Part shown: positions 5,196 to 62,711 of the stretch, in pieces
Layout: every line of letters begins with the position of its first letter
Position numbering within the stretch: position 1 is the first letter of the stretch
Source of the DNA: an uncultured beta proteobacterium
GTDB taxonomy: Bacteria > Pseudomonadota > Gammaproteobacteria > Burkholderiales > SG8-39
Length of the DNA: 64,000 bases
Reading direction: 5' to 3'
NCBI GenBank assembly: GCA_963789885.1
Contig: CAWBNB010000049.1
Span: 1,304 to 65,303, forward strand
The notes under the pieces: model-generated
The model's input: the letters and a program-made list of their open reading frames with translations, nothing else
The model's database searches: none
What the model was told of the DNA's origin: nothing
Made by a program: the position numbers and the translations under genes

Positions 5196-6101
5196 TCAGC
5201 CTGCGGCGGCCGCCCCGCCGAGCCGCATCTGCGCGAGCACCGCGCGGCCGACCGGCCCGTGCGGGTTCGCGATCGTCTCGGCGATCTCGAAGTGGTTGTA
5301 GTGCTCGGCAGCGACGAGCTCTACCGGCTTGCCCGCTTTGCGCAGCGCCGCGGCGAATTCCCGCGACTGGCGCTGGAACTCCGGTGTCTCCAGCGTGCCG
5401 TAGACGAGCACGATCGGCGCGCGGATCGCATCGACATGTCGTTGCGGCGAGAGCGCCGCTTCCATCTCGTCGGTGAACCTTACGTACCGGCTACGCTTGG
5501 AGAGCCGCGGGCCGCGCAGGTCGTACATGCCGCTCGTCAGCGTGTACCCCTTTACTGTATCGGCCGGCAGCCCGAAGTCGCGTTCCCAGCCGGTGATCGC
5601 GACGATGCCGCCGAGGTGCGCGCCCGACGAGCTGCCCGAGACATACAGCCGGGTCGCGTCGCCGCCGAAGCGCGCGGCGTTGCGATGGACCCAGGCCACC
5701 GCGCGCCGCACCTGATCGGCCATCACGAACAGGCTGCCGCCGGCTTCCTCGACGTTGTCGAAGTCCGGGACCACGTAATGCGCGCCGGCGAGGACGAACA
5801 TCTCGGCCGGATAGCCGTAGTCGCGCGCGCGGCCCGCGCGCCACGCGCCGCCGTGGAGATACACGTTGATCGGCGCGTTCGGAAGGGACGTGCGGTAGAC
5901 GTCCAGCTGCTCGATCGGCGTCGGGCCGTAGGCGAAGCGCCCCGGCGCGCCGAGGCGTTGGCGTACGAGCTCGCTCGCGTGTGCGATGCGCGCGAGGAGC
6001 TGCTGCCGGTTGGGCGCGTAGACCGACTGGTCGTAGGCGTCGTCGAGCGCCTTCTGGTCGTAATCGAGGAAGACCTTCGGCCCGCTCGGCGCCGCGGTCA
6101 T
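5196..6101 (-). CDS. Alpha/beta hydrolase (esterase/lipase fold-3 type)
   Basis: HGG oxyanion motif (YLHGGAW) and nucleophile elbow GSSSG. Confidence 0.85.
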
Positions 6102-6105
6102 CGCC

Positions 6106-7077
6106 TCAATCCACCTTCGCGCCGCTCGCCCGCACGATCGGGGCGATGCGCGCGATCTCGGCTTTCAGGTTGGCGGCGAACTCGCCGGAGGTGTTGCCGA
6201 CCGGGATCAAGCCGTTGAGCGCGAACTGCTCGCGGACCGAGGCCGACGCGAGCGCGGCGCGCGCGTCGGCCTCGAGCTTTCCCACGATCGCGGGCGGCGT
6301 GCCTTTCGGCGCGAGCAGCGCGCTGCCGCCGCCGAAGTCGTAACCCTTCAGGCCGGACCCGTCCAGCGTCGGCACCTCCGGGGCGGTGGCGAGGCGGGTC
6401 TTCGTCGTGACCGCGAGCGCGACCAGCTTGCCGGCCTTCACGTAGGGCAGCACGAGCGGCGCGTTCTGGAACGCGAGCTCGATCTGGCCGGCGACGAGCT
6501 CGGTCGTCATCTGCGAGCTCGATTTGTACGGGATGTGCTGCAGGTCCACGCCGGCCATGCGCTTGAAGAGCTCCGCCGACAGGTGCTGCGACGAGCCGCT
6601 GCCGGCCGAGCCGAAGCGCAGCTTGCCCGGGTTGGCCTTCGCGTAGGCGATCAGCTCCTTCGTCGATTTCACCGGCACGCTCGGATGCACCACGAGGATG
6701 TTGGGGGTGTGCGAGATCTGCGTGATCGGCTCGAAGTCGCGCACGATGTCGTACGGCAGGCCCGGGTACAGCGACGGATTGATGTAGAGCGGCCCGGCCG
6801 AGGCCATCAGCAGGGTGTAGCCGTCCGGTGGCGACTTCGCGACGCGTTCGGGCGCAATGTTGCCGCCGCCGCCGGGCAGGTTTTCGATGACCCAGACGTA
6901 GCCGTTCGCCTCGGTCATCTTGTGCGTCACGAGGCGAATCTGGATGTCGGGCGACCCGCCCGCCGAGGACGAAACGACGATGCGGACCGGCTTGGCGGGG
7001 TAGTCCTGCGCGGCCGCCGAGGCGGCGAACACACCCAGCGCGACGCCGGCGGCGAGAAGGATACGCAAATCTCGCAT
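6106..7077 (-). CDS. Bug/TctC family tripartite tricarboxylate transporter substrate-binding protein
   Basis: Signal peptide followed by the family hallmark [10 protein letters not shown]..., PPDGYTLL and [11 protein letters not shown]. Confidence 0.9.
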
Positions 7078-12304: not shown

Positions 12305-12520
12305 ATGACCCTGGCCAGGATCCTCGGTGTGCTGCTGATCGTCGCCGGCGTGGCGGGCCTGATCCTCGGCAGCTTCTCCTACACCAAGGAGACGCACCAG
12401 GCGAAGCTCGGCCCGATCGAGCTCTCGGTCAAGGAGAAGGAAACCGTCGCGATCCCGATCTGGGTCAGCGTGGCGGCGATCGCCGCCGGCACGGTCCTCC
12501 TGATCAACCGCAAACGCTGA
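12305..12520 (+). CDS. Small two-transmembrane-helix membrane protein (hypothetical)
   Basis: 71 aa with two hydrophobic helices flanking a charged loop. Confidence 0.55.
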   Translation: MTLARILGVLLIVAGVAGLILGSFSYTKETHQAKLGPIELSVKEKETVAIPIWVSVAAIAAGTVLLINRKR

Positions 12521-12555: not shown

Positions 12556-13536
12556 ATGAAATTCCGGCCTCTCGGACGCACCGGCGTGCAGGTGTCGCAG
12601 CTCTGCGGCGGCACGATGGCCTACGGCGGCGACGCGGACGAAGGCGCCTCCGCGGCGATGTACAAGGCGTGCCGCGACGCCGGCATCAACTTCTTCGATA
12701 CCGCGAACCAGTACAGCAGCGGGCGTTCGGAGACGATCCTCGGCGCGCTGATGCAGGGTCACCGCGAGGAGCTCGTCATCGCGACGAAGTGCTTCAACCC
12801 GACCGGCGCCGACGTCAACGCGCGCGGACTCTCCCGCCGCCACATCACCCGCGCGGCCGAGGACAGCCTGAAGCGGCTCCGAACCGACCGCGTCGAGGTG
12901 CTCTATCTGCACCAGATGGACCCGTCGACGCCGCTCGAGGAGTCGCTGCGTGCGCTCGAGGATCTGGTGCGCGCCGGGAAAGTGCTGTACCCGGCGCTCA
13001 GCAACCACACCGCGTGGCAGACGCAGAGAGCCGTCGACATCGAGGAGGCGCAGGGCTGGGCGCGGCTCCAGGTCCTCCAGCCGATGTACAACCTGGTGAA
13101 GCGGCAGGCCGAGGTCGAGATCCTGCCGATGGCCGAGGCGAACGGCCTCGGGGTGGTGCCCTACAGCCCCGCCGGCGGCGGACTCCTCTCGGGCAAGTAC
13201 GAGCAGAAGGAAGCCCCGGGGACCGGCCGGCTCGTCTCCAATCCGATGTACCAGGTCCGCTACGGCGAGGACTGGATGCACGAAACCGCGGCGAATTTCG
13301 CCGCGCTTTGCAAGCAGCGCGGGGTGCACCCGATGAGCATGGCCGTCGCGTGGACCGGCAGCCACCCCGCGATCACCGCCCCCATTATCGGCGGGCGGAA
13401 CGTCGACCAGCTGCAGGCGTCGCTCGACTCGGTGAAGATCGACATGACGCCGGGGCTCCGCGCGGAAATTTCCGCGCTGTCGCGCACCCCGCCGCCGGCG
13501 ACCGACCGCCTCGAAGAGGCGAAGGCGAAGACGTAG
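12556..13536 (+). CDS. Aldo/keto reductase
   Basis: AKR pattern: GINFFDTANQY, LATKC, YLHQMD, PYSPAGGGLLSGKY. Confidence 0.9.
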   Translation: MKFRPLGRTGVQVSQLCGGTMAYGGDADEGASAAMYKACRDAGINFFDTANQYSSGRSETILGALMQGHREELVIATKCFNPTGADVNARGLSRRHITRAAEDSLKRLRTDRVEVLYLHQMDPSTPLEESLRALEDLVRAGKVLYPALSNHTAWQTQRAVDIEEAQGWARLQVLQPMYNLVKRQAEVEILPMAEANGLGVVPYSPAGGGLLSGKYEQKEAPGTGRLVSNPMYQVRYGEDWMHETAANFAALCKQRGVHPMSMAVAWTGSHPAITAPIIGGRNVDQLQASLDSVKIDMTPGLRAEISALSRTPPPATDRLEEAKAKT

Positions 13537-27246: not shown

Positions 27247-28089
27247 TCACTCGAGCCGATATCTCTTGCGCCGCACGAACGCCCCGAAGTCCGCCCGCTG
27301 CGGCTCGCTGTACTGACGCGCCTTGTCCTCGGTCCAGCCGTAGCGCTCGGCGGTGCCGAAGCGCTCGGCGAGGCGCTGTCGCCGGTACGGGCGATCGCGG
27401 ATGCGGCGCTCGTCGTAGCCGTCGAGCTCCAGCTCGACGCGGCGCGCGTCGTAGCGGCCTTGGTGCACCGTCGCGGTCAGCGCGAGCCGCGGACTGAACG
27501 GCTCGTACGCCTCCGGCCAGCCGAGCGTGAGGCCGGCGATCGGGAACACCCAGTCGGGCAGCGCCAGCCGCTCGGCGATCGCCTGCGCGTGATTGCGGAT
27601 CTCGCTGATCGGACAGCTGCCGAGTCGAGCGAGCCCCGCCGCCTGCACGAACGTCGAGAGCACGATCGCGCCATCCACCGCCGCGTTGAAGAATGCGTCG
27701 AGGTGCTCGTTCGGAAACGCGAGCCCGCGCCGCTCGAAGATCCGCCGCAGCCGGAAGCCGTCGCCGCAGAAGACGAGGAACTCCGGTGCGCCGGCGATCC
27801 ACGGCGAACCCGGCAGCAGGGCATGGATCGCCGCGCGATCGGCCGGCGCGGTCACGCGCACGATGCTCGCCTGCTGCAAGTCGCTCTTGGTCGGCGATGC
27901 GAGCGCGGTCGCGAACAGGATTCGCAGCAGCGCCTCGGGCACCGGTTCGGCGCGGTAGCGCCGGCAGACCGCGCGTTCATTCATCGCCGCCAGAGCGTCG
28001 GCGCCCGCAAGGTCGGCCGGGACCTGGACGCTTTCGTCGTAGCGGCGGTGAATGGCGGCACCGATGCGGGCAGGAGCGGATGTGCTCAT
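27247..28089 (-). CDS. Nitroreductase family protein with a C-terminal extension of about 70 aa
   Basis: Nitroreductase core (RAVCRRYRAEPVP...SPTKSDLQQ...). Start at the ATG at 28089, preceded by GGAGAG. Confidence 0.75.
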   Translation of the reverse strand: MSTSAPARIGAAIHRRYDESVQVPADLAGADALAAMNERAVCRRYRAEPVPEALLRILFATALASPTKSDLQQASIVRVTAPADRAAIHALLPGSPWIAGAPEFLVFCGDGFRLRRIFERRGLAFPNEHLDAFFNAAVDGAIVLSTFVQAAGLARLGSCPISEIRNHAQAIAERLALPDWVFPIAGLTLGWPEAYEPFSPRLALTATVHQGRYDARRVELELDGYDERRIRDRPYRRQRLAERFGTAERYGWTEDKARQYSEPQRADFGAFVRRKRYRLE

Positions 28090-28186
28090 CGCGGTCTCTC
28101 TCCTCGAATGCGCGCTGCATGGTAGCCCACGCGCCGCGCGCGCTCCTGTACGATCCGCGGGCGACCATTCCAAGGAGGCGGTAACA

Positions 28187-29155
28187 ATGCACCAGTCGAT
28201 TCGGGCGCTGATCTGCGCTGCAGCAATGCTCGTGCCGGGCCTGGCTGCCGCGCAGGCCTATCCGCACAAGCCCGTTCGCATCATCGTGCCGTTCCCGGCC
28301 GGCGGCCCGGCCGATCTGTTCGGACGCGCGCTCGCGCAAGGGATGACCGGCAGCCTCGGCCAGCCGGTGATCATCGAGAATCGCGCCGGGGTGGGCGGCG
28401 TGCTCGGCGTCGACAACGTAGCGAAGGCGCCGCCGGACGGCTACCTGCTCGCACTGAACAGCGGCTCGGCGGTGGCGATCGCGCCGTTCTCGATGGAGAA
28501 GATGCCCTACGACCCGAAGAAGGACCTCGCACTCATCACGACCGTGGTCAAGGTGCCCGAGGTGCTCGCGGTGCATCCGTCGCTGCCGGTGAACACGCTG
28601 GCCGAGCTGATCGCGTACGCGAAGGCGAATCCCGGGAAGATCAACTTCGGCTCGGCCGGGGGCGGCACGATCACGCATCTCGCCGGCGAGCTGCTCAAGG
28701 CGGAAGCCGACGTGAACTTGGTCCACGTGCCCTACAAAGGCGCGGCGCCCGCGGTGCAGGATCTGCTCGGCGGGCAGGTGCAGATGGGCGTCTTCGACGT
28801 GCCGGTGCTGCTGCCGCACCTCCGCTCGGGGAAGCTCAAGGCGCTGGCGATCACGAGCGCGAATCGGTCGGCCGCGCTTCCCGACGTGCCGACGACCGCG
28901 GAGCTCGGCTACCCGAAGGTGAACTCGGACAACTGGTACGGGCTCGTCGCGCCCGCGGGCACGCCGCCCGAGGTCCTCGCCCGGCTCCACGCCTCGGCGA
29001 CGGCGGCGCTGAAATCGCCCGAGGTGATCGAGCAGTACGCGAAAGTCAGCGGGATCGCCTTCCCGTCGTCGGCGGCGGAGTACGCGGTGTTCATCGACAC
29101 CGAGCAGGCGAAGTGGGGTCCGGTCGTGAAGGCGATCGGGTTCAAGCAGCAGTAG
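28187..29155 (+). CDS. Bug/TctC family substrate-binding protein
   Basis: AAGGAGG SD. Signal peptide plus YPHKPVRIIVPFPAGG and PPDGYLL. Confidence 0.9.
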   Translation: MHQSIRALICAAAMLVPGLAAAQAYPHKPVRIIVPFPAGGPADLFGRALAQGMTGSLGQPVIIENRAGVGGVLGVDNVAKAPPDGYLLALNSGSAVAIAPFSMEKMPYDPKKDLALITTVVKVPEVLAVHPSLPVNTLAELIAYAKANPGKINFGSAGGGTITHLAGELLKAEADVNLVHVPYKGAAPAVQDLLGGQVQMGVFDVPVLLPHLRSGKLKALAITSANRSAALPDVPTTAELGYPKVNSDNWYGLVAPAGTPPEVLARLHASATAALKSPEVIEQYAKVSGIAFPSSAAEYAVFIDTEQAKWGPVVKAIGFKQQ

Positions 29156-30045: not shown

Positions 30046-30894
30046 GCGGGAAGCGCTCGACCACGGTCGTCATCGAACCCTGGCGGGCGCAGCCGCTCGC
30101 CTGGATCCATCGACGCGAAGCGCGCACGATCGCCGGTGAGCTGCAGCGCGCCGGTCGCGCGGTGACCGAGATCCGGTTCCGGCAGGACGCGGTCGCCGAT
30201 CTTCCGCCGGGACCGCTGCTGCTGCGCCTCTCCGACCCGGTAATGCTTGTTGCCGCGCAGACGCTCGGCCGCGCCGGCATCCCCTATCTCGGTCCGAGCG
30301 CTGCAGTCATGGCACGCTGCTACGACAAATGGGTGGCGCACGGCATCGCAACCACCGCCGGCATCGACTGTCCCGCGACCGCGCTTGCATCAGAAAGCCG
30401 CCGGCCTGTCGTTCCCGATCGTCGTCAAGCCACGGTGGGGATCCGACTCGCTCGGCATGCGGCTCGTCCGGACCCGCCCGATTCCGAAGCGCGCGCGGAG
30501 CGCGGGATTCATCGCACAGGAACAGATCGTCGGTGCGGAACTGACCGTGGCGGTGATCCACGACTGCGTGGGCATGCCGCTGCGGCTCGACCTCCCCGCA
30601 GGGACGCCGTACTCGTTCGCGCGCAAGTACCTGCTGCGGCCGCACCGCACGCCGGTCGCGGACGAGGCGCTCGCAGAGCGCGTGCGTCGCCTTGCGACGG
30701 AGATTGCCGGCGTGTACGCGGTCGACTGGGCGGCGCGGATCGACCTCATCCACGAGACCGCGACCGGGCGCCTGCGCCTGCTCGAATGCGACGTCGCGCC
30801 GCTCGTGGGGCCGGGCTCCGCGTTCGCGGCGAGCCTCGCCGCCGCCGGGGTACCGCGCGCGGAGCAGCTCGAGCTGCTGCTCGGCGCAGCCTGA
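30042..30894 (+). pseudogene. ATP-grasp (D-Ala-D-Ala-ligase-like) protein, interrupted by a +1 frameshift near 30393
   Basis: GTG start overlaps the upstream TGA (GTGA). The N-terminal part (...YDKWVAHGIATTAGIDCPATALAS) is in frame 0. The continuation (KAAGLSFPIVVKPRWGSDSLGM...) is in frame 1 (ORF 30247-30894). Confidence 0.65.
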
Positions 30895-33681: not shown

Positions 33682-34362
33682 TCACCAGGCCACGGGGCGC
33701 CGGTGCCGGAAAAACCCGCCCGTCGGACCTGACGCCGGCAGCGTCGCGAGCCAGACGATCGTGTCCGCACCCTCCTCGACCGAGCTGGTCGCGGATTTCC
33801 CGCCCATCCGTGTGCGTACCCAGCCGGGGCACCCGGCGTTGACCTTGACGTCGCCGCGCACCTCGCCGGCGAGCTTGAGCGTCAGCGCGTTGAGCGCGGC
33901 CTTGGAGATCGAGTACGCGGTATCGGGCCCCAGGCCGCTGCTGAAGGCGCCGTAGCCCGACGAGACGTTGACGACGCGCCCATATCCGCGCGCGACCATC
34001 CCGGGCACCAGCGCCCTGCACAGCGCGAGCGGCCCGAACAGGTGAACTTCCATCGATTCGCGCACCGCCGACATCGCGACCGTGAAGCTGTCGCCGGTGC
34101 TGTAGATGCCGGCGTTGTTCACGAGCACGTCGATCGCGATACGCTCGCGCGCGAGCGACGCCACCGCGGCGTCGATCGACACCGGATCGGCTACGTCCAG
34201 CTCGATGGCGGTCGCCTGCGCGTCCGTGATCGAACGCGCCGCCGCCTGACCGTCCGGCACCGACCGCGACCCGATGACGACGCGCAGGCCCGCGGCGGCG
34301 AGCCCCTTCGCGACGGCGAGGCCGATGCCGCGGTTCCCGCCGGTGATCAGCGCGGTTCGCAC
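33682..34362 (-). CDS. SDR family oxidoreductase
   Basis: TGGNRGIG cofactor motif, NNAG, and the YSISKAAL catalytic Y-x3-K. Confidence 0.9.
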   Translation of the reverse strand: MRTALITGGNRGIGLAVAKGLAAAGLRVVIGSRSVPDGQAAARSITDAQATAIELDVADPVSIDAAVASLARERIAIDVLVNNAGIYSTGDSFTVAMSAVRESMEVHLFGPLALCRALVPGMVARGYGRVVNVSSGYGAFSSGLGPDTAYSISKAALNALTLKLAGEVRGDVKVNAGCPGWVRTRMGGKSATSSVEEGADTIVWLATLPASGPTGGFFRHRRPVAW

Positions 34363-34437
34363 GGCTGCGCGGCTACTTGGGGGGCTTGAACGCGTGTGTC
34401 CACTGGTTGCGGAGCAAGGTGATTGCCATCGTGCAGT

Positions 34438-35440
34438 TCAGGCATCGTACGCCGACACCCGGCGCTGGACCGGGAAGAGATGCAGGTCGAAGCGCTCGCG
34501 CGACGTAGCCCCACAGCCCGCGCGGGAAGCGCACCATCACCACCACCGCGACGAGCCCGAGCACGATCAGGTACCAGGTCCCGAAATCGGCGAGCGTCTC
34601 GCGCAGCACGAAGAAGAGCAGCGTGCCGATGATCGGGCCCTCGATCGTGCCGATCCCGCCGATCACGACGATGAAGATCACGAACGCGGTCCAGCTCACG
34701 CCGAACGCCGCGTCGGGCGAGATGCGCAGGTTCACCAGGAAGTAGAGCGCGCCGACGACGCCGCAGCCGAACGCCGCGATCACGTACACCCAGAACTTGG
34801 TCGCGGCGATGTCCACGCCCTGGCTCGCCGCCGCGCGCTCGCTGTCGCGGATCGCGGTGAGTGCGAGGCCGTGCCGCGAACGGAGCAGCCAGTAGAGCGC
34901 CGCGACCGCGCCGACGAGCCACCGCGAGCGCGATCCAGAACGTCACCGACTCGCGCATGGCTCTTCGGGAACTCGCGGATGGAGATCAGGCTGGTGCCGG
35001 TGCCGCCGCCGACCGCGGCCGTGTTCGAGGCGACGAGGCGGAGCGACTCTGCCACCACCCAGGTGCCGATCGCGAAGTAGCCGCCCTGCAGCCGGAACAC
35101 GATCCTCGAGGTCGGCACCGCGACCAGCGCCGCGACCACGCCCGCGAGCGGAACGCAGAGGAACGGGTTGAGGCCGCCGAGATCGGCGGCGACGACGAGC
35201 GCGTAGCCGCCGACGCCGAGATAGCCCTGCTGCCCCACCGAGACGAGGCCGCCGTAGCCGGCGAGCAGGTTCCACATCTGCGCCAGCGCGAGCAGGCAGG
35301 CGAACTCGACGAAGAGCCGCAGCGTGCTCGGGTCGGCCCACGCGGGGAGCGACGCGAGCACCAGCACGCGCGACGACCGCCGCGACCCCGGCGACCCGGC
35401 TGGCGCGCGTGGCGCGATGGACGACGGCGGCCGGCTCGTC
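34438..35440 (-). pseudogene. livM: LivM-type branched-chain amino acid ABC permease, at least 3 frameshifts (5' end uncertain)
   Basis: Conserved segments are split over ORFs 34780-36240 (LAQMWNLLAGYGGLVSVGQQ...), 34347-34958 (MRESVTFWIALAV) and 34373-34816 (DIAATKFWVYVIAAFG...GGIGTIEGP). The family-typical end RFDLHLFPVQRRVSAYDA* appears only after a further shift near 34500. Confidence 0.7.
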
Positions 35441-35446
35441 CGCTCG

Positions 35447-36322
35447 CTAGTCCCGCGTCCGCGGGAAGAGACCCTGCGGCCGCACGAGCAGCACGGCGAG
35501 GAAGACGAGATGCCCGACGAGGATGCCCCAGCCGGGATCGAGGCGGAAGCCGATGCCCTGCGCGACGCCGAGCACCAGCGCGCCCGCGAACGTGCCCCAG
35601 AACGAGCCCGAGGCCGCCGATGATGACCGCCTCGAACGCGTAGAGGAGATATCCCGGGCCGTCGCTCGGCGAGACCGTGGTGCGTAGCGCGAGGAAGACG
35701 CCCGCGACGGTGACCACCGCGAACGCGATCGCGGTGGCGAGCGCGTACACGTGGCGGTGGTCGATGCCCTGCAGCTCGGCCGCCTGCGGATCGTCGGAGG
35801 TGGCGCGGAACGCGCGGCCGAGCGTGCGTATGTCCGAAGAGCCACTCGAGCGCGACGGTCAGGCCGAGCGCCACGAGCAGCGTGATCAGCGGGAGCCAGC
35901 CGATCGCGAGGTCGCCGGCGATGCGCATGCTCTGCGTCTCGAGGCCGCCGGCGCTCAGGCCGCGCGAGTCGGCGGAGAACACTTCGAGCAGCACGTTCTG
36001 GATGATGATCGAGAGCCCGAACGTCACCAGCAGCGGCGGCAGGATGTCCTTGCCGAGCGTGCGGTTCAGGACGCCGCGCTGGAGGCCGTAGCCGACCGCG
36101 ACCATCACCGGCAGCGACCATGGCGAGGAGCGAGCGCCGGACCGGCCGGGACCGCCGAGCGCGATGCCGATGGCGAGGAACGCCGCGAGCACGATGAGGT
36201 CGCCGTGCGCGATGTTCACCAGGCGCATCACGCCGAACATGAGCGACAGCCCGATCGCGAACAGCGCGTAGAGGCCGCCGAGCAGCAGCGCCCTGCAGGA
36301 CGGTGTCGATCCAGCCGATCAT
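35447..36322 (-). pseudogene. livH: LivH-type ABC permease, at least 3 frameshifts
   Basis: MIGWIDTVLQG (ORF 35447-36322 frame), then LLLGGLYALFAIGLSLMFGVMRLVNIAHGD (ORF 34780-36240 frame), then YALATAIAFAVV...IIGGLG (ORF 34986-35750 frame), then FWGTFAGALVLGVAQ...* (back in the first frame). Confidence 0.75.
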
Positions 36323-37031
36323 GCCGCCACGCCCGACCCGAAGTACGCAGCGGAGATCGCGGCGCGCGCGAGCTCGCTCGAGCGCCCCTGCAGCGACACG
36401 CGGCCCTCCTGGAAGCAGTACAGGCGGTCGGTCGTGCGCTGCGCGAGCCCACGTCCTGCTCGACGACGATGACGGTCAGCCCCTCGCGCATCATCGCCGG
36501 GAGCGCGCCGTAGAGGCGCGGTCACGACCAGGGGCGAGAGCCCGAGCGAGATCTCGTCGCAGATCAGGAGGCGCGGGTTGGCGATCAGCGCGCGGCCGAT
36601 GGCGACCATCTGCTGCTGGCCGCCCGAGAGCGCGTTGCCGGGGAGCGCGCGCACCTCGCGGAGCGCGGGGAACAGCTCGTAGACGCGCGCGAGGCTCCAC
36701 GGTCCCTTGCGCTCGTGTAACCGCCGATCGAGCAGGTTCTCCTCCACGGTGAGGCTCGGGAAGAGCCGCCGGCCCTCCGGGACCATGGCGATGCCGCGCC
36801 GGACGATGCGGTGGCGGGCATGCCCGCCGATCGCTCGCCGTCGAGCACGATCCGGTCGGGCGGCGCGGCGAGCAGCCCGGTGACCGTCTTGAGGAACGTC
36901 GACTTGCCGGCGCCGTTGGCGCCGATGATCGCGACCACTTCGCCGGCGCGGATCTCGAAGTCGATGCCGAACAGCGCCTGGAAGTCGCCGTAGAACGCGG
37001 TGAGCCCCCGGGTGGCGAGCAGCGCGCTCAC
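36319..37031 (-). pseudogene. livF: LivF-type ABC ATPase, about 5 frameshifts
   Basis: Walker [10 protein letters not shown] lies in the ORF 36585-37478 frame. Signature LSGGQQQMVAIGRAL lies in the ORF 36319-36786 frame. MMREGLTVIVVEQD lies in the ORF 36228-36494 frame. The GTG start overlaps the upstream stop (GTGA). Confidence 0.75.
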
Positions 37032-37760
37032 GCCTCGATTCCCAGGTAGACGCGCCGGACCTCCGGGTCGGCCATCACCGCGCGCGGGCGCGCCCTCGGC
37101 GAGCTTCGCGCCGAAGTTGATCACGACGATCCGGTCGGCGACCGCGACGAGGGCGTGCATGACGTGCTCGATCCAGATCATCGTCGACGCCCGCGCGCCT
37201 TGATCTCGCGGATCAGCGCGACCAGCTCGCGCGACTCGTGCTCGGTCAGGCCGCCGGCGATCTCGTCGAGCAGGAGGAGCTCGCGGCCGCGTGGCGAGCG
37301 CGCGCGCGAGCTCGAGGCGCTTGCGGTCGAGAAGGGTGAGCGAGCCGGCGAGCGCGGTTCGCGTGGCCGCCGGAGCCCGGTGCGCTCGAGCACCTCGACG
37401 CACGCGCCGCTCGCCGCGTCCTCGCGGCAGCGCCGCGCCGAACGTGGCCGCGACGAGCAGGTTCTCGAACACCGTCATGCCGCCGAACGGCTGCGGGATC
37501 TGGTAGGAGCGCCCGATGCCCCGGCGGCAGCGCTCGTGGGGCGCGAGCCGCGGTGATGTCCTCGCCGCGGAAGCGGATCGACCCGGCGTCGGCGCGCAGG
37601 TCGCCGCCCGATCGAGGTTGAACAGCGTGGTCTTGCCGGCGCCGTTCGGGCCGATGACGCCCAGCGACCTCGCCGGCCTCGACCGACAGCGTCAGATCGT
37701 CGACGACCCGCACGGCGCCGAACGACTTCCGACGCCCGCGAGTGCGAGGACCTCGGTCAT
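37028..37760 (-). pseudogene. livG: LivG-type ABC ATPase, about 9 frameshifts
   Basis: MTEVLALAGVG, SFGAVRVVDDLTLSVEAGEVAG, VIGPNGAGKTTLFN (hand translation), GIGRSYQIPQPFGGMTVFENL, VLERTGL, SLTLLDRKRLELARALA, LLLLDEIAGGLTEHE and TMIWIEHVMHAL alternate between all three frames. Confidence 0.75.
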
Positions 37761-37819
37761 CGGACGACGCGGCGCCGCGTAGCGCGCCTCCGGCGCCGTG
37801 CTCCCGCGCGAGGACAGGG

Positions 37820-39107
37820 TCAGCCGATCAGCTTCAGCTTGCCCGCGACCGGGATCGTTCGGCGCGGTCCGGTTGTCGACGACGACCAGCTCGTACTTGT
37901 ACTTCTTGCCCGGCACCCACTGGCCGCCCGACGAGCGGCGTCCGCGTCACGTTCTTCACCGGCCCCTTGCCCCACGCGACGTGGCCGACGATCGTGTCGA
38001 GGTCGGTGGCGACGAGCGCGTCGCGGATCGGCGGCCTTGTCGCCCGCGTCCTTGGCGCGCTTGAGCGTGTCGATCGCGACCTCGAACAGCGCGTGCACGA
38101 AGCCGATCGGCTGCGTCCACTGCTTCTTCGTCGCCGCCTCGTACGCGTCGGCGAGCTGCGTCGCCGACTGGCCGGTGAGCGAGGACTTGAACGGGACGGT
38201 CGGCGTCCACCACACCTCGGTCGACATCCCGTCGCCGAGCTCGCCGAGCGCCTCGACCGCGGCCGGGAAGAGCAGCGCCTTGCCGACCGTGACCACCTTC
38301 GGCCGGAAGCCCTGCTGGCGCGCCTGCGTCAGGAACGTCTTCATGTCCGGCGGGATCACGACGCCGGTGACGATCTCGACGTTCTCCTTCTTGAACGCCG
38401 CGATCTGCGCGCTGAAGTCCTGGGTGAGGTTCTGGAAGCGGCCGGGATCGACGAGCTTGAAGCCGTCCTTCGCGAGCGCGGGCGGCAGGCCGAGCTTCGG
38501 ATCGCCCCACGCGTTGCCGTCGCCGTCGTTCGGGAAGAGCCCGCCCACGACCTTGTTGGTCGGCACCGAGCCCCACAGGTTGAGGAACACCGCGATGATG
38601 TCCTCGAGACCCCAGAAGAAGTGATAGGTCCAGTTGAAGCCCTTCGCCGGGTCGCCCTTGCGCCCGAAGAACCACGGCTGCCACGGGCAGAGGCTCGACA
38701 CGCACGGCACCTCGTTCAGCTCGCACTGGTCGGACACCGGGTTCGCGGTCTCCGGCGTGTTGCCGACCGCCATGATGTCGATCTTCTCCTTGAGGATCAG
38801 ATCGGCGGCCACCTCGCCGGCGCGGTTCGGGTTCGACTGGCTGTCGCGGACCACGACCTGCACCGGGTACTTCTTGCCGCCGATCGTGATGCCGTTCTTG
38901 AGGAGGGCCTGGACGCCGCCGATCACGAACTTGTCCGCCTCGCCGAACGGCGCGAGCGGGCCGGTCTGCGGCGACACGTAGCCGATCTTGAGCGGGCGGG
39001 CGCCTGGCCGAACGCGGGAAGCCGAGGCTGGCGGCGGCGCCCGCCGTGGCGAGCGCGGCACCGCGCTTGAGGGCACTGCGGCGGCCCGGGTCGACGTTGC
39101 GTTTCAT
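37820..39107 (-). pseudogene. Liv-type ABC substrate-binding protein, at least 4 frameshifts
   Basis: The Tat-like signal MKRNVDPGRRSALKRGAALATAGAA lies in the ORF 37956-39107 frame. The body (PLKIGYVSPQTGPL...TLKRAKDAGDKAA) lies in the ORF 37820-39076 frame. PGKKYKYELVVVDNRTAPN lies in the ORF 37692-37916 frame. The last codons IPVAGKLKLIG* return to the body frame. Confidence 0.75.
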
Positions 39108-39120
39108 GGTTCTCCCTTGT

Positions 39121-40690
39121 CTATTTGCGGAACAGGTTGATCTTGTCGGTGTTGACCAGGTCGGGCGCCGTCCAGCCGTTGAGGTCGTACTCGTTCAGGC
39201 ACTTGTCGGCGAACGCCTTGAAGCGGTCGTACGCGCCGGAGGCGATCGCGCCGAAGAGCGCGTAGCGCCGGATCTCCTCGTGGCTGCCGCTGTAGTTGAT
39301 CTCGTACAGTTCGTGGCGCCCGCCGAACTCGGTCCCGACCGCGTCCCAGAGCGCCTTCATCACCTTCACCCGGCCCACCGCGTCGACGCCGCCGGAGCCG
39401 CGCAGGTAGCGGTCGAGGTACGGGCGCAGCTCCGGATTCTTGAAGTCGTTCGCGTGCGAGTTGAGGAAGATGAGCCCGCTCGCCACCGTCTTCTCGATCA
39501 GGTTCTTCACCGCGACGTACGCCTCGGGGGCGAGCACCTGGTAGGCGGAGGCCGCCTCCATGCTGGGAAGGATGCACCCGCTCTCCCACGGGTCGGCCGA
39601 GTGCGCCATCGCCTCGGTGCACGCCCACAGCATGTTGCGCCAGGCGAGCGCCTCGCCGATGTTCGCCTCGACGCCGCGGAACTGCCGCGCGCCGGTGATC
39701 TCGGTCGCCTTGATCATCAGGCCGACGATGAAGTCGAGCTTCACTGCGAGCCGCGTGCAGCCCTGGAACATCGCGCGCGGCAGGAAGCCGGTGCGCGGGA
39801 AGAAGTTGTTCGCCTTCTCGACGTCGGCGTAGACGAACACGTCTTCCCACGGCACGAACGCGTTGTCGAGCACGAAGACCGCGTCGTTCTCGTCCAGCCG
39901 GCTCGACAGCGGGTAGTCGAACGGGCTGCCCATCGCCGCGGCGCGGTACTCGTTCGAGACCCGGCAGATGAGCTTCACCCCCTTGGCGTTCGTCGGGATC
40001 ATGAACACCATCGAGAAGTTCTTGTCCTGCACCGGGATCAGGCCGTGGTGCGCGACGAACGTGTAGTGCGTGAGCGCGGACCCCGTCGCGACGACCTTGG
40101 CGCCGCTCACGTAGATGCCCGCGTCGGTCTCCTTGGTGACGTGGCAGTACACGTCGGTCGCGCCGCCCGGCGCGCCGGGCGCGATTTGCGGTCGACCGGC
40201 GGGTGGATGATCGCGTGGTTCACGAACGGCACGCGCTCCTGGCTCGCGCGGTACCACTTGCGCGCGTTCGCCTGGTACGGCGCGTAGAACTCCGCATTCG
40301 CGCCGAGGGTGCCGAGGAACGCCGCCTTGTAGTCGGGCGAGCGGCCGAGCCAGCCGTAGGTGACGCGCGCCCACTCGGCGATCGCGTTGCGCGAGGCGAC
40401 CTGCTCCTCGACCGTGCGCGGCGCGATGAAGTAGCGATGCGTGAACCCGCCCCACTCGGTCGGGCAGGTGAGAACGTTCTTCCGGACTTGTGGTCTTCGT
40501 GCAGCGCGTCGTAGAGCCGCGCGATCATCCGCGCGGTGTTCTGGAACGCGGGATGCTGGGTGATCTTCTTCACCCGCTCGCCGTAGATCCAGATCTCCCG
40601 CCCGTCGTCGAGGCTCTCGAGGAACTCCTGGCCGGTGTACGGGAGCGTGACCGTGCCGCTCGCGGATTTCGGCTTCGCTTCGGTCGCCAT
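39121..40690 (-). pseudogene. 4-hydroxyphenylacetate 3-monooxygenase oxygenase-component (HpaB) family protein, 2 frameshifts
   Basis: The N-terminal 67 aa lie in ORF 40220-40690 (...[34 protein letters not shown]). The middle part ([22 protein letters not shown]...[11 protein letters not shown]) reads only in the third frame. The C-terminal ~350 aa lie in ORF 39121-40455. GAGGAGG SD precedes the ATG at 40690. Confidence 0.75.
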
Positions 40691-40793: not shown

Positions 40794-42044
40794 TCAGCCG
40801 GCGCGTGCGAGCGGCGCGGGGGCGCGCGGGAAGAACCCGCCGCCCGAGCGCCGCACCAGCCACAGTGCGATCGTGAGGTTCACGAGGTTCCACCCGATCC
40901 CGTTCGCGAACGCCGCCTTGTACGAGCCGGTGAGGTCGAAGATCGCGCCGGTCATCCAGCCGCCGAGCGCCATGCCGAAGAGCGTCGCCGTGATGACCGC
41001 GGCGATGCGGGTGCCGGCCTCCCGCGGCGTGAAGTGCTCGCGGACGATGATCGCGTACGCCGGCACGATGCCCCCCTGGAAGAGGCCGAAGAGCCCGGAG
41101 ATGACGTAGAGCGACACCAGCCCGTCGAACGGGAGGAACAGCATCAGCGCGAGCCCCTGCAGCAAGGACCCGAGCGCAAGGGTGCGCAAGCCCCCGATGT
41201 GATCGCAGATCCAGCCCGACGCGAGCCGGCTCACGACGCCCAGGCCGAGCATCACCGACAGCATCTCGGCGCCACGCGCCGGCCCGTAGCCCAGGTCGGT
41301 GCAGTACGCGACGATGTGGACCTGGGGCATCGACATCGCCATGCAGCAGGCGAGGCCGGCGACGATCAGGAGGCCCTGCAGCGTGCCCGGCGAGAAGCCG
41401 AGCGGTCGCGGGCTTCCCGACGCCACGCGCGCGCCCGCGGGCGAAAACTCGAACACCGGTGGCCGCCGTCGCATGACCACCGCGAGCGGCAGCATCACCG
41501 CCGCGCAGACGATGCCGATGCCGAAATGGGTCTGGCGCCAGCCCACGGTCTCGATGAAGTGCTGCACCACCGGCGGCCAGATCGTGCCGGCGAGGTAGTT
41601 GCCGCTCGCGCAGATCGCCACCGCCAGCCCGCGCCGGCGGACGAACCACAGCGAGATGTCGGCGATGAGCGGCGAGAACGTCGCCGAAGCGCCGAGGAGG
41701 CCGATGATCAGCCCCTGGACGAGTGCGAACTGCCACAGGCTCGCCGTTGCGCTCGCGGCGACGTAGCCGATGCCGAGGGCGAGCGCACCGATCACCACCG
41801 GGACGACCACGCCGAAGCGGTCGGCGAGCCGGCCCATGAGCAGGCCACCGACACACAGGCCGAGGAGCGTCAGCGTGTAAGGCAGCGAGGCGTCGCCGCG
41901 CGCGACGCCGAATTCCGCCTGAACCGTCGGCAGCACCACGACCACCGACCACAGGCCGACGCCGCCGACGGACGAGATCGCGAGCGCCGCGGCGAGGCGC
42001 ACCCACGCGTAGGCGGAGTCCGCCTCGCTTTGCTGCTTGGTCAT
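40794..42044 (-). CDS. MFS transporter
   Basis: 416 aa from the ATG at 42044 (GGAGG SD). Twelve predicted helices and the MFS loop motif GRLADRFG. Confidence 0.85.
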   Translation of the reverse strand: MTKQQSEADSAYAWVRLAAALAISSVGGVGLWSVVVVLPTVQAEFGVARGDASLPYTLTLLGLCVGGLLMGRLADRFGVVVPVVIGALALGIGYVAASATASLWQFALVQGLIIGLLGASATFSPLIADISLWFVRRRGLAVAICASGNYLAGTIWPPVVQHFIETVGWRQTHFGIGIVCAAVMLPLAVVMRRRPPVFEFSPAGARVASGSPRPLGFSPGTLQGLLIVAGLACCMAMSMPQVHIVAYCTDLGYGPARGAEMLSVMLGLGVVSRLASGWICDHIGGLRTLALGSLLQGLALMLFLPFDGLVSLYVISGLFGLFQGGIVPAYAIIVREHFTPREAGTRIAAVITATLFGMALGGWMTGAIFDLTGSYKAAFANGIGWNLVNLTIALWLVRRSGGGFFPRAPAPLARAG

Positions 42045-56881: not shown

Positions 56882-57800
56882 GTGGCCACCCCACGAATCG
56901 CTCTCGAGCAGTGGCGCGCCCTGCTGACGGTCGTCGACGCCGGCGGCTATGCCCAGGCGGCGGCGACCCTCCACAAGAGCCAGTCCGCGGTGACCTACGC
57001 GGTGCAGAAGATCGAATCGCTGCTCGGCGTGAAGGTCTTCGAAATCCGTGGCCGCAAGGCCGCGCTCACCGACGCCGGGCAGGTGCTCTACCGGCGCGCG
57101 CGTACCTTGGTCGAGGAGGCGGCGGCGCTCGAAGACGGCGCGAAGGCAATGGCCGCGGACTGGAAGCCCGAGCTTCGCCTCGCGGTGGAGGTGATCTTCC
57201 CGACGTGGCTGCTGCTCGAGGCCTTGCGCGACTTCGCCGGCGAACGGCCGGAGACGCGCATCGAGCTGTACGAGACGGTGCTCGGCGGGACGGACGAAGC
57301 GCTGCAGTCCCGCTCGGTGGATTTGGCAGATCACCTCGCAGGTGCCGCAGGGATTCCTCGGCGACCTGCTGATACGGCTGCGCTTCATCGCCTGCGCGCA
57401 CCCCGACCATCCGCTCCACAAGCTCGGCCGCGAGCTGACCGACCGCGACCTGCGGCGGCACCGGCACCTGGTCATCCGCGATTCCGGCACCCAGCGCACC
57501 CGCCCGGGCGCGTGGACCGGCGCCGAGCAGCGCTGGACGGTGAGCTACAAGGCGACCTCCATCCGGGCGGCGACGATGGGGCTCGGCTTTGCGTGGTACC
57601 CGGAGGAGAACGTCCGCGAAGAGCTGGCGGCGGGCCGCCTCAAGGCGCTGCCGCTGCGGGAAGGCTCCGAGCGCTGGGCGGACCTCTATCTCGTGTTCGC
57701 GGATCCGGACTACGCGGGCCGCGACGAGCGCCGCCTTGCGGAGATCATCCGGGGGTCGGTGGCGAGGACCTGCGCCGGCGCGGCACGGCGTGACGGATAA
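56882..57800 (+). pseudogene. LysR family transcriptional regulator, interrupted by a +1 frameshift near 57329
   Basis: HTH and the first half of the substrate-binding domain lie in ORF 56882-57793 up to ...EALQSRSVDLA. The continuation (VPQGFLGDLLIRLRFIACAHPDHPL...) lies in ORF 57342-57800. Confidence 0.7.
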
Positions 57801-58281: not shown

Positions 58282-59256
58282 TCAATCGATCTTCATCTCC
58301 TTGATGATCGGCCGGAACTGCGCGAGCTGCCGCTTCAGGATCGCGTCCTGATCGGCGGACGAGGAGCCCACCGGCTCGGCCCCGATCTCGACGAACCGCT
58401 TCGCGACGTCGGGGTGCTTCACCGCTGCGGCGGTCTCGCGCTGCAGGCGGTCGATCACGTCGCGCGGCGTCTTGGCCGGCGCGAAGAAGCCATTCCAACC
58501 TTCGGCCTCGAGCAGCGGAAAGCCGAGCTCGCGCACCGTCTGGACGTCCGGCAGCTCGGGGACGCGCTTGGAGCCGTTGGTCGCGAGCGCGCGCAGCTTG
58601 CCGGCCTTGATGTCGGCGAGCGACGAGGAAAGCTGGTCCCCGCCGACCTGCAGCCGGCCGGCGAGCAGCTCCTGCTTGAGCGGCGCGGCGCCCTTGAGCG
58701 GCACGTGGGTCATCTCTACGTTCGCTTCGCGCTTGAATGCCTCGCCGATCACGTGCATGAACGACCCGGGTCCGGTCGAACCGTAGGTGTAGTGCGCGCT
58801 CGTGTTGGCCTGGAGGAAGGCGGCAAGCTCCTTCAGGTCCTTCGACGGGATCGTCGGGCTCGCGGTGATCACCAGCGGCACGAACACGACGATCGAGATC
58901 CCGGCGAAATCGGTGTCGACGTTGTACAGCGGCCGGTTGGCGAACTGCGCCGCGGCGGACGCCATCGGGAACGTCACGTTGTGCACCAGGATCGTATAGC
59001 CGTCCGGCGGCGCCTTCGCGACCACCTCCGCGCCGAGCTGGCCCCCGGCGCCGGCGCGGTTCTCCACCACGACCGGCTGCCCGATCGTCTCGCTCATGCG
59101 GCTCGCGACCAGGCGCCCGACGATGTCGGTCGTGGCGCCGGCCGGGAAGGGCACGATGATCTTGATCGGCTTCGAGGGGAAGGGCTGGGCGAGCGCGTGG
59201 GGCGCAAACGCGGCGAGCGCGGCGCACAGCGCCGCCCCGGCGAGCTTCGTTCTCAT
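58282..59256 (-). CDS. Bug/TctC family substrate-binding protein
   Basis: Signal peptide plus FPSKPIKIIVPFPAGA and PPDGYTILV. Start at the ATG at 59256 after AAGGAGG. Confidence 0.9.
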   Translation of the reverse strand: MRTKLAGAALCAALAAFAPHALAQPFPSKPIKIIVPFPAGATTDIVGRLVASRMSETIGQPVVVENRAGAGGQLGAEVVAKAPPDGYTILVHNVTFPMASAAAQFANRPLYNVDTDFAGISIVVFVPLVITASPTIPSKDLKELAAFLQANTSAHYTYGSTGPGSFMHVIGEAFKREANVEMTHVPLKGAAPLKQELLAGRLQVGGDQLSSSLADIKAGKLRALATNGSKRVPELPDVQTVRELGFPLLEAEGWNGFFAPAKTPRDVIDRLQRETAAAVKHPDVAKRFVEIGAEPVGSSSADQDAILKRQLAQFRPIIKEMKID

Positions 59257-59367
59257 GTCGGGTTCCTCCTTTGGGGTCCGCGGGTTGTACTCCAACCGGC
59301 GCGGGTTGTCAGCACCTCGCGGGCGTTGCGCGACAATTCGCGCCACGCTCATCCAGGAGGACGCCAA

Positions 59368-59797
59368 GTGAACGCCCGAGCCCAGCGCTTCAACGTCAGC
59401 CACCGCGCCAAGTCGAAGTTCGTGCGGCGCGGTCTGCGCAGCTACTTCGAGTACCGCGACCTCGGCATCGAGCGCGCGACCCGCGGCAAGGTGGTCGCTC
59501 ACGTCATCCGCGCTCGGCCCGGAAAGGCACCGCACGGCGAGTGGCACTATCACGATTGCGACGTGCAGTTCGTCTACGTGCTCAAGGGCTGGGTGAAGTT
59601 CGAGTACGAGGGCGTCGGCAACGTGACCATGCGTGCGGGCACGTGCTTCTACCAGCCGCCGAACATTCGCCACCGCGAGCTCGCGCATTCGCAGGGACAT
59701 CGAGATGATCGAGGTCGTCGCGCCGGCGAACTTCGAGACGCGCGACGCGAAGCCCCCGGCGAAGCGCAAGGCGCGCCGGAAGCACAAACGGAGCTGA
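59368..59797 (+). pseudogene. Cupin domain protein, interrupted by a +1 frameshift in the GGG run at 59694-59696
   Basis: GTG at 59368 follows CCAGGAGG. The cupin core (GEWHYHDCDVQFVYVLKG...CFYQPPNIRHRELAHSQ) is followed out of frame by DIEMIEVVAPANFETRD...KRS*, ending at the TGA at 59795-59797. Confidence 0.65.

Positions 59798-61049: not shown

Positions 61050-62711
<1,662 letters not shown>

Follow-up and report, generated by a model that had tools for sequence, protein, structure and literature searches.

Frameshifts clustered in an HpaB–Liv operon are probably consensus errors from two collapsed variants

Several kinds of process are known to leave frameshifts in bacterial genes. In heterozygous or strain-mixed regions, mixtures of haplotypes produce artefacts during consensus building and polishing with Pilon, Racon and other tools, as described in the Hapo-G paper (PMC8092372), and in metagenomes assembled with Flye close strains end up merged in one consensus sequence (PMC8302730). 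The residual indels of long-read genomes and metagenomes (proovframe preprint, 10.1101/2021.08.23.457338; Nanopore R10.4 study, PMC9262707) are described as lying mainly in homopolymers and as scattered genome-wide. Genuine pseudogene clusters, in turn, arise by reductive decay of a dispensable operon.

The locus described here is a six-gene operon in a 64 kb stretch of DNA (hereafter, the window), and it shares something with each of these. It is like the haplotype-mixture artefacts (PMC8092372; PMC8302730) in that the errors are confined to a stretch where two variants probably co-occur, the frameshifts fall in otherwise intact coding sequences, and alleles of both variants are interleaved; it differs in an unusually high density, about 5 per kb and up to 13.6 per kb in livG, and in that its signature of both alleles in tandem was inferred from relatives rather than from reads. 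As in the accounts of residual long-read indels (10.1101/2021.08.23.457338; PMC9262707), the pieces of the broken reading frames align consecutively to one intact homologue. Isolated errors of that kind occur in L081, L060 and elsewhere in the window, whereas those of the operon are mostly non-homopolymer, insertion-biased, clustered and tied to polymorphic sites. The disruption of a whole functional unit beside intact neighbours recalls a genuine pseudogene cluster; however, the operon lacks stops, larger deletions, a deletion bias and, in three of its six genes, any relaxation of dN/dS, and its indels coincide with positions at which relatives are polymorphic.

The genes hpaB-SBP-livG-livF-livH-livM, on the minus strand at 34438-40690, carry 31–32 frame-breaking indels in this sequence, comprising 24 insertions of a single base and one of 2 nt, together with six deletions of 1 nt and one of 2 nt. 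Insertions outnumber deletions by 25 to 7 (about 4:1), and no event is larger than 2 nt. The features are as follows.

39121..40690, minus strand: hpaB-like gene (4-hydroxyphenylacetate 3-hydroxylase family oxygenase component); 1-nt deletions at 40480-40484 and 40186
37820..39107, minus strand: periplasmic substrate-binding protein (SBP; Peripla_BP_6, LivJ/K-like); 2-nt deletion near 39015; +1 at 38034, 37931 and 37855
37028..37760, minus strand: livG-type ABC ATPase (ABC_tran + BCA_ABC_TP_C); -1 at 37732; +1 at 37662, 37544, 37424, 37366, 37357, 37282, 37196, 37187 and 37084; +2 at 37612-37611
36319..37031, minus strand: livF-type ABC ATPase (Pfam ABC_tran); -1 at 36808; +1 at 36730; -1 at 36714; +1 at 36517; -1 at 36447
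35447..36322, minus strand: livH-type permease (BPD_transp_2); +1 at 36289, 36154, 36132, 36116, 35826 and 35609
34438..35422, minus strand: livM-type permease (BPD_transp_2); +1 at 35368, 34963, 34917 and 34498

Four independent methods agreed on the frame breaks. A GC3 frame-plot showed many phase switches at 34.4-40.7 kb, and a homology-free Viterbi segmentation based on codon usage switched at matching coordinates. A protein-to-DNA aligner with explicit frameshift states, using the intact L001 and L081 orthologues as references, upheld the breaks and assigned two to hpaB, four to SBP, 10–11 to livG, five to livF, six to livH and four to livM. The net length changes, -2, +1, +10, -1, +6 and +4 nt, respectively, agree exactly. 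The aligner found no in-frame stops in any of the six genes. DNA alignments to L001/L060, L081, L083 and L084 placed the indels identically, all of them private to the window. A previous sequence-only reading had counted at least 26 frameshifts in the operon and had described the damage as indel-only, without in-frame stops; its roughly 26 positions were all recovered within a few nucleotides, and the present list adds 37357 in livG and the insertions at 36154, 36132 and 36116 in livH. Its cluster end at 34373 is corrected here to the livM stop at 34438.

The contrast with the surroundings is sharp, at 31 events in 6253 nt compared with three in the remaining 57.7 kb (P=2e-28). Those three isolated breaks, near 30368, 57330 and 59695, match the number reported previously for the other ~57 kb. 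The flanking SDR (33682-34362) and MFS (40794-42044) genes, already described as uninterrupted, each hold a single GC3 phase, and no frameshifting indels were found in the co-aligned flanks (SDR + YDMC, 1479 nt; MFS, 1251 nt). Within the operon the density is uneven, with livG the most heavily damaged of the six genes and a central 970 nt of SBP remaining in one frame with no events, and it follows divergence from the relatives only loosely. The background of the window is itself error-prone, as its three isolated frameshifts outside the operon indicate; one of them, in a LysR gene (GC{A}{G}ATC), belongs to the non-homopolymer wobble type seen in the operon.

The repaired products give full-length Pfam matches (HpaB_N + HpaB, Peripla_BP_6, two ABC_tran and two BPD_transp_2), and on this basis the underlying genes are predicted to be an HpaB-family hydroxylase and a Liv-type (HAAT) ABC uptake operon. 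Repaired hpaB has 521 codons, no stops in the frameshift-aware alignment, and amino acid identities of 98.3% to L081 and 94% to L001, while livH and livM are 96.9% and 96.7% identical to L081, respectively. The GTG start of livF overlaps the livG stop (GTGA) and the ATG start of livH overlaps the livF stop (ATGA); the start of livM is uncertain, being either GTG at 35422 or a codon farther upstream near 35437, as in L081. Gene order and sizes are conserved in L081, L083, L084, L001, L012 and the P0123 contig, and the genes tabulated for a JGI contig of 66.7 kb are likewise intact, at 523, 428, 240, 236, 289 and 331 aa.

Five independent assemblies with the same operon served as comparators (L084, L081, L083, L001 and L060); nucleotide identity to the window is 93-93.3% for L084 and 91.5-91.7% for L081. 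None of the 31–32 indels is common to any of them. Their own frameshifts are isolated: none in L084, one in L081, one in L001, two to three in L060, and none within the part of the operon that L083 covers. L081 shares the MFS-operon-SDR-YDMC synteny of the window; among other close relatives (L084, L082, the P0123 contig, L001/L060) the operon lies in different genomic contexts. Derived states like those of L084 and of L081 are interleaved among the window alleles. No second copy or close paralogue of the operon was found within the window.

The indels are related to polymorphic sites. At 13 of the 24 insertions of one base, the added base and the one beside it match precisely the two alleles that segregate in that column among four relatives, compared with 12-13% expected for random insertions (P~1e-6, with gaps optimised anew in the same way for real and simulated insertions); the relatives act in these tests as a proxy for the variants actually co-assembled. 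With three relatives the figure was 7-9 of 21 (P=1e-4 to 4e-4). L084 served as an out-of-sample check, being added after the alternative alleles had been predicted, and it has them at 37424, 36289, 35826 and 34498. Both of the alleles found in relatives are reproduced by the livG doublets at 37662, 37424, 37366, 37196 and 37084, and by four of the six insertions in livH, where all six are wobble-position doublets. Deletions behave similarly: three of five single-base deletions fall at columns polymorphic among the relatives (12.9% background, P=0.017), the bases lost being polymorphic wobble bases, including that of an AAT/AAC codon at 40186 in hpaB. The 11 insertions without a matching allele in the four relatives may derive from variants outside the sample. 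An earlier and weaker criterion, the synonymous wobble doublet, gave a marginal result (14/21 against a null of 41-50%, P=0.02-0.09).

Homopolymer-compatible insertions are depleted (5/24, with 52-55% expected; P~1e-3), so that the extra G or C in short G/C runs proposed from the sequence describes few of the events. A suspected association with GATC was not significant, 3/31 events lying within 4 nt of one of the 74 GATC sites (13.7% expected, P=0.8). Nor do the relatives show the GGAAAG that had been proposed as the repair of GGAAG: at 40480 the relatives read GGGAAG or GGAAGG (GGAAGGAAC or GGGAAGAAC, compared with GGAAGAAC in the window), and the base lost at 37732 is the wobble of a GTN codon.

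For hpaB, livH and livM, which together carry 12 frameshifts, dN/dS is 0.06-0.15, the same as between pairs of intact genes (0.08-0.14 for livH and 0.06-0.10 for livM); pN in livH and livM is 0.010-0.016, again as in intact pairs, despite six and four frameshifts, and no excess of private substitutions was found in these three genes. In SBP, livG and livF, pN/pS on the window branch is raised to about 0.4-0.7, with conservative replacements and no stops. The many private replacements of the SBP allele have a mean BLOSUM62 score of +0.36, compared with -0.47 for random substitutions. The excess of amino acid changes in SBP, livG and livF may mean that the allele really is divergent, or that the consensus is a chimera involving a variant farther removed, and the collapse of variants does not fully explain it.

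The indels are restricted to this assembly and lie on polymorphic sites, both alleles are reproduced, and purifying selection on the intervening sequence is normal, most clearly in hpaB, livH and livM. We consider it very probable that the organism carries an undamaged operon and that the 31–32 indels are consensus errors from two co-assembled variants collapsed into one contig. Reads of two co-occurring, closely related operon variants would have entered one contig; these variants could come from two strains or populations with a common operon but different flanks or, less likely, from a second genomic copy. Where the variants differ by a single base, consensus or polishing would take the difference for one inserted and one deleted base and carry out just one of the two changes, so that both alleles are written in tandem (a +1 doublet) or both are dropped (-1). 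The outcome would be indels of 1-2 nt limited to the stretch of mixed reads, with clean flanks, and the damage would stop at the operon because close relatives carry it in different contexts. Both the read-level mixture and the responsible software step are what we infer from this pattern.

Ordinary long-read errors, left uncorrected at random where coverage was locally low or polishing was lacking and unrelated to any mixture of populations, would also give indel-only damage of 1-2 nt that is sharply local. Sporadic frameshifts do occur elsewhere in the window and in related public long-read assemblies such as L081 and L060, and an insertion excess, as seen here, is found in some long-read error profiles. 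Such errors nevertheless give no reason for the indels to coincide with the relatives' polymorphic sites or to supply the alternative allele, and homopolymer events, the typical remnant of long-read sequencing error, are under-represented here instead of being in excess. Random error is also at odds with the lack of excess private substitutions in hpaB, livH and livM, and the window holds no paralogous copy that could have blocked polishing. The allele doublets and the coincidence with polymorphic sites therefore favour a mixed-variant consensus over random error, which we regard as unlikely. The previous suggestion of an assembly artefact stands, but its proposed cause, an unpolished or low-coverage patch in a multi-copy Liv operon, is not the best fit, since the errors hit polymorphic sites with the alternative allele.

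A real and very recent inactivation in which numerous small indels disabled the entire operon, also raised from the sequence, would fit damage that strikes every one of the six genes in a functional unit and spares the genes next to it, as if one pathway had lost selection, and the raised pN/pS of SBP, livG and livF points the same way. Bacterial pseudogene decay is, however, deletion-biased, broad in its range of sizes and favoured by slippage at runs, which is the opposite of the spectrum observed here. The indel spectrum, the allele doublets and the unrelaxed dN/dS of hpaB, livH and livM together argue against mutation, as do the absence of stops, the conservative nature of the extra replacements in SBP, livG and livF, and the three +1 insertions in livH (36154, 36132, 36116) that lie within 38 nt and jointly restore the frame; we hold such inactivation to be very unlikely. 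Only one biological reading would explain why the indels fall on polymorphic sites, and it calls for a new mutational process: homeologous recombination between diverged L084-like and L081-like operon copies, with heteroduplex mismatches aberrantly resolved so that both bases were kept or both dropped. It is highly improbable that the indels are physically in the DNA for this reason, the operon having been killed by a single event of this type that left +1/-1 scars exactly at the mismatches. Expression through ribosomal frameshifting or transcriptional slippage could draw on the intact start codons, the tight overlaps and the pristine sequence between shifts. It would require about 32 shifts of both signs over six genes, at heterogeneous and mostly non-repetitive sites that are neither slippery heptamers nor long homopolymers, and the five orthologous loci share none of these shifts; programmed recoding, the last of the options raised previously, is effectively refuted by this lack of conservation.

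The frameshift cluster is almost certainly not a real biological feature and represents no new biology; the value of the finding is one of quality control. Its signature, +1 insertions outside homopolymers whose added base forms with the adjacent one the relatives' two alleles, confined to a segment that varies in genomic context among relatives, can be computed without reads from an assembly and a few relatives, and could serve to mark collapsed-variant regions in MAGs built from long reads. Annotation of the operon as it stands would yield six pseudogenes, or about 20 gene fragments, and might suggest that a catabolic pathway has been lost; such calls should not be propagated. For each of the six genes the repaired protein sequence follows without ambiguity, and the HpaB-type hydroxylase and Liv-type uptake operon is most likely functional in the organism.

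Because the window has a G+C content of ~70%, long spurious ORFs occur in every frame. ORF lists alone are weak proof of broken genes in such a sequence, and four independent approaches were therefore applied to the operon (minus strand, 34438-40690). A GC3 frame-plot showed repeated phase switches across 34.4-40.7 kb, with the SDR (33682-34362) and MFS (40794-42044) flanks each in a single phase. A homology-free Viterbi segmentation, using codon usage trained on the window itself, placed switches at the same coordinates as the frame-plot and detected three convincing breaks elsewhere, near 30368, 57330 and 59695, which matches the count that the sequence-only reading had given for the remaining ~57 kb. 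A purpose-written protein-to-DNA aligner with explicit frameshift states, with intact orthologous proteins as references, then gave the following events.

Frameshift events per gene of the minus-strand operon, from protein-to-DNA alignment
hpaB: 2
SBP (substrate-binding protein gene): 4
livG: 10-11
livF: 5
livH: 6
livM: 4

The indel positions were reproduced by DNA alignments against five orthologous loci. In total there are 24 single-base insertions, one 2-nt insertion, six 1-nt deletions and one 2-nt deletion. In every gene of the operon the net length change equals the gap to the intact gene length. The density of 31 events in 6253 nt, versus three in the other 57.7 kb, is highly significant (P = 2e-28). 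All of the ~26 shifts that had been placed by hand translation were found again by alignment, at accurate coordinates, and further ones were added at 37357 (livG) and at 36154, 36132 and 36116 (livH), the latter three being +1 insertions that jointly restore the frame. The broken frames were thus confirmed against intact orthologues, as was the earlier observation that no in-frame stops lie between the shifts, there being none in the matched codons of any of the six genes. The repaired products are full-length (HpaB_N+HpaB, Peripla_BP_6, ABC_tran+BCA_ABC_TP_C, ABC_tran and two BPD_transp_2 proteins).

The three isolated breaks, each on the plus strand, lie in an ATP-grasp/Ddl-like gene (30340-30390), a LysR-type regulator (57325-57335; GTGGATTTGGC{A}{G}ATCACC, an extra wobble-position base outside any homopolymer) and a cupin-like gene (59690-59700), the last in a G-run (CAG[G]GAC).

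With the intact C-terminal segment of HpaB as query, species-representative genomes gave 80 loci, of which L001 and L060 were the closest. Both are from Nanopore soil MAGs and have the operon alone in common with the window (84-89% nucleotide identity), their flanks being different. Apart from one private indel relative to the window in a five-way alignment, L001 is essentially intact, its six ORFs all being full-length. Used as a protein query, the repaired HpaB gave a full-length match of 98% identity (P0001) on L081, a contig of an ENA metagenome assembly. There the complete operon is followed by the SDR and YDMC genes, as it is in the window, and the two sequences form a single 8-kb alignment of 91.5% identity. 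Two JGI contigs extend the comparison: L083 (MFS-hpaB-SBP-livG), and a 66.7-kb contig (P0123) whose gene table, the only part consulted, reads NMO-MFS-HpaB-SBP-LivGFHM…SDR-YDMC with products of 523/428/240/236/289/331 aa. The nearest relative over the operon (93.3%), the JGI locus L084, was located with a DNA pattern tolerant of doublets (+1 insertions whose extra base and neighbour resemble the two alleles of a one-base polymorphism), and is completely intact. Exact-match look-ups with the window's SDR and MFS proteins, aimed at a second assembly of this genome, gave no record.

None of the window's indels occurs in L084, L081, L083, L001, L060 or the JGI gene table. The co-aligned flanks (SDR+YDMC, 1479 nt; MFS, 1251 nt), whose divergence is similar or higher, are free of frameshifting indels, which bears out the earlier view that the SDR and MFS genes are uninterrupted. 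Isolated frameshifts of the comparators' own number one in L081 (SBP), two to three in L060, one in L001 and none in L084. The L081 SBP (~2729) is called at 452 aa and runs Arg-rich and out of frame after ~aa 314 owing to an extra G in a G-run; the private single-base insertions of L060 include sites equivalent to window 39394 and 38868.

Read codon by codon, many of the window's insertions look as if the two alternative bases of a one-base variant had been written one after the other, as in livH (GG{C}{G} GTC … CT{C}{G} CTC … GT{C}{G} CTG), and deletions appear to drop wobble bases. Under a "synonymous wobble doublet" criterion, by which either of two adjacent, different bases can be removed with the protein unchanged, 14 of 21 insertions fit. 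However, so did 41-50% of simulated random insertions in these GC-rich genes (P = 0.02-0.09), and this test was therefore dropped as decisive evidence. A stricter allele-matching test asked that the extra base and its neighbour be two alleles found among intact relatives at the same column. With three relatives, 7/21 insertions matched versus 7% expected (P = 3-4e-4); when the gap position was re-optimised in the same way for the observed and the simulated events, 9/21 versus 11% (P = 1-2e-4); and with L084 added, 13/24 versus 12-13% (P ~ 1e-6). Alternative alleles predicted and recorded before L084 was fetched are present in that locus at 37424, 36289, 35826 and 34498. Insertions compatible with homopolymer error are depleted (5/24 versus 52-55% expected; P ~ 1e-3), and three of five single-base deletions fall at columns polymorphic among relatives, against a background of 12.9% (P = 0.017). 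The suggested tie to GATC was not significant (P = 0.8), and GATC- or methylation-linked errors were rejected as the cause.

A single common codon alignment gave dN/dS values of 0.06-0.15 against the closest relatives (pN 0.008-0.016) for hpaB, livH and livM, which have 12 frameshifts together; these values are indistinguishable from those of intact-versus-intact pairs (0.08-0.13). In SBP, livG and livF, window-private substitutions are in excess and are distributed evenly across codon positions. Neutral decay, or substitution errors, was rejected as the main reading of this even spread because the replacements are significantly conservative (mean BLOSUM62 +0.2 to +0.8 versus about -0.5 for random) and include no stop, and because no such excess is seen in hpaB, livH or livM. 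A 970-nt stretch of SBP has many private changes and zero indels. In character, the private changes of the three genes resemble genuine alleles of a variant that is functional but more divergent. Around 150 of the 172 window-private substitutions fall within 36750-39240, and the operon edges outside it are 94-96% L081-like. The segment itself (SBP, livG and the 5' half of livF) is equally far from L081 and L001 (82-90% nucleotide identity). Natural mosaicism or recombination may have produced it, as may a chimeric consensus with a more distant variant. Derived alleles common to the window and L084 (66) and to the window and L081 (23) are interleaved along the operon.

We consider that the indel cluster is very probably an artefact, not biology, produced when collapsed variants passed through consensus building or polishing. 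A one-base difference between two read populations could be written as an insertion paired with a deletion; if only one of the two were applied, a tandem doublet or a dropped base would result. At 40480, where relatives have GGAAGGAAC or GGGAAGAAC and the window GGAAGAAC, two nearby mismatches aligned as compensating indels, with the deletions alone retained, would yield the window reading. Flye is known to merge close strains into a single consensus (PMC8302730), and the MFD MAGs, to which L001 and L060 belong, are Nanopore-only assemblies made with Flye and one round of Medaka (PMC12313526). The literature covers the general phenomenon of collapsed strains and polisher-induced frameshifts in heterozygous regions; an explicit description of the tandem-allele doublet was not found in the literature searched.

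The sequence-only reading had proposed an unpolished or low-coverage patch, and its artefact component stands. Random residual read errors in such a patch are nevertheless an unlikely cause, as they leave the link of the indels to polymorphic sites unexplained. A real, recent inactivation of the operon by indels, also raised earlier, is very improbable, since it fits neither the indel spectrum nor the allele doublets, and selection on hpaB, livH and livM is unrelaxed. Programmed recoding, or read-through by slippage, can be set aside almost entirely, since the shifts are too many, of mixed sign and not conserved in orthologues.

The collapse of variants would also account for damage confined to the operon, as populations with a common operon in different surroundings would produce mixed reads across the operon only. 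Differing genomic contexts were indeed found among close relatives. L084 has a complete NADP/F420-oxidoreductase-like gene downstream of livM (5866-6537, 223 aa, ending '…FLRNEWTHAFKLLK*'), and directly past the livM stop the window retains a ~13-codon 3' remnant of such a gene (34373-34411, minus strand, '…LRNQWTHAFKPPK*'). This remnant is a deletion scar, and the operon's downstream junction has therefore been rearranged among close relatives. L082 carries a RidA-family gene (Pfam Ribonuc_L-PSP) upstream of the operon, in the 66.7-kb JGI contig livM and SDR are separated by an aldehyde dehydrogenase gene, and the operon flanks of L001 and L060 are unrelated to the window's. Self-blastn and tblastn found no second operon copy within the window, where the only paralogues are distant ABC-ATPases (280-459 and 61170-61754); this ruled out an in-window copy as the source of a mixture or polishing failure. 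A copy elsewhere in the genome, where the sequence-only reading had proposed to look for paralogous Liv operons, is a less likely source than a mixture of strains.

In L001 (~12350-12490 and ~13215-13325) and L060, the SBP-livG and livG-livF spacers also hold G+C-rich, palindrome-containing insertions of 84 nt and ~115 nt, at points corresponding to window 37761 and 37035, which may be small repetitive extragenic elements. The window, L081 and L084 lack them, their genes abutting or overlapping at these points. MAGs labelled Rokubacteria/Methylomirabilota, Alphaproteobacteria, Acidobacteriota, Binatia and others (L002-L059) encode HpaB proteins with 73-83% identity to that of the window, and one Rokubacteria locus (L012) has the complete six-gene operon, which suggests that the unit may be horizontally widespread among soil bacteria. 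Several TctC/Bug-family periplasmic binding protein genes are present in the window (28052-29155, plus strand; 58285-59271, minus strand) and next to the operon in L081 (8130-9074), and would fit the Betaproteobacteria label of the closest MAGs.

The reusable part of this analysis is a read-free signature for spotting collapsed-variant segments.
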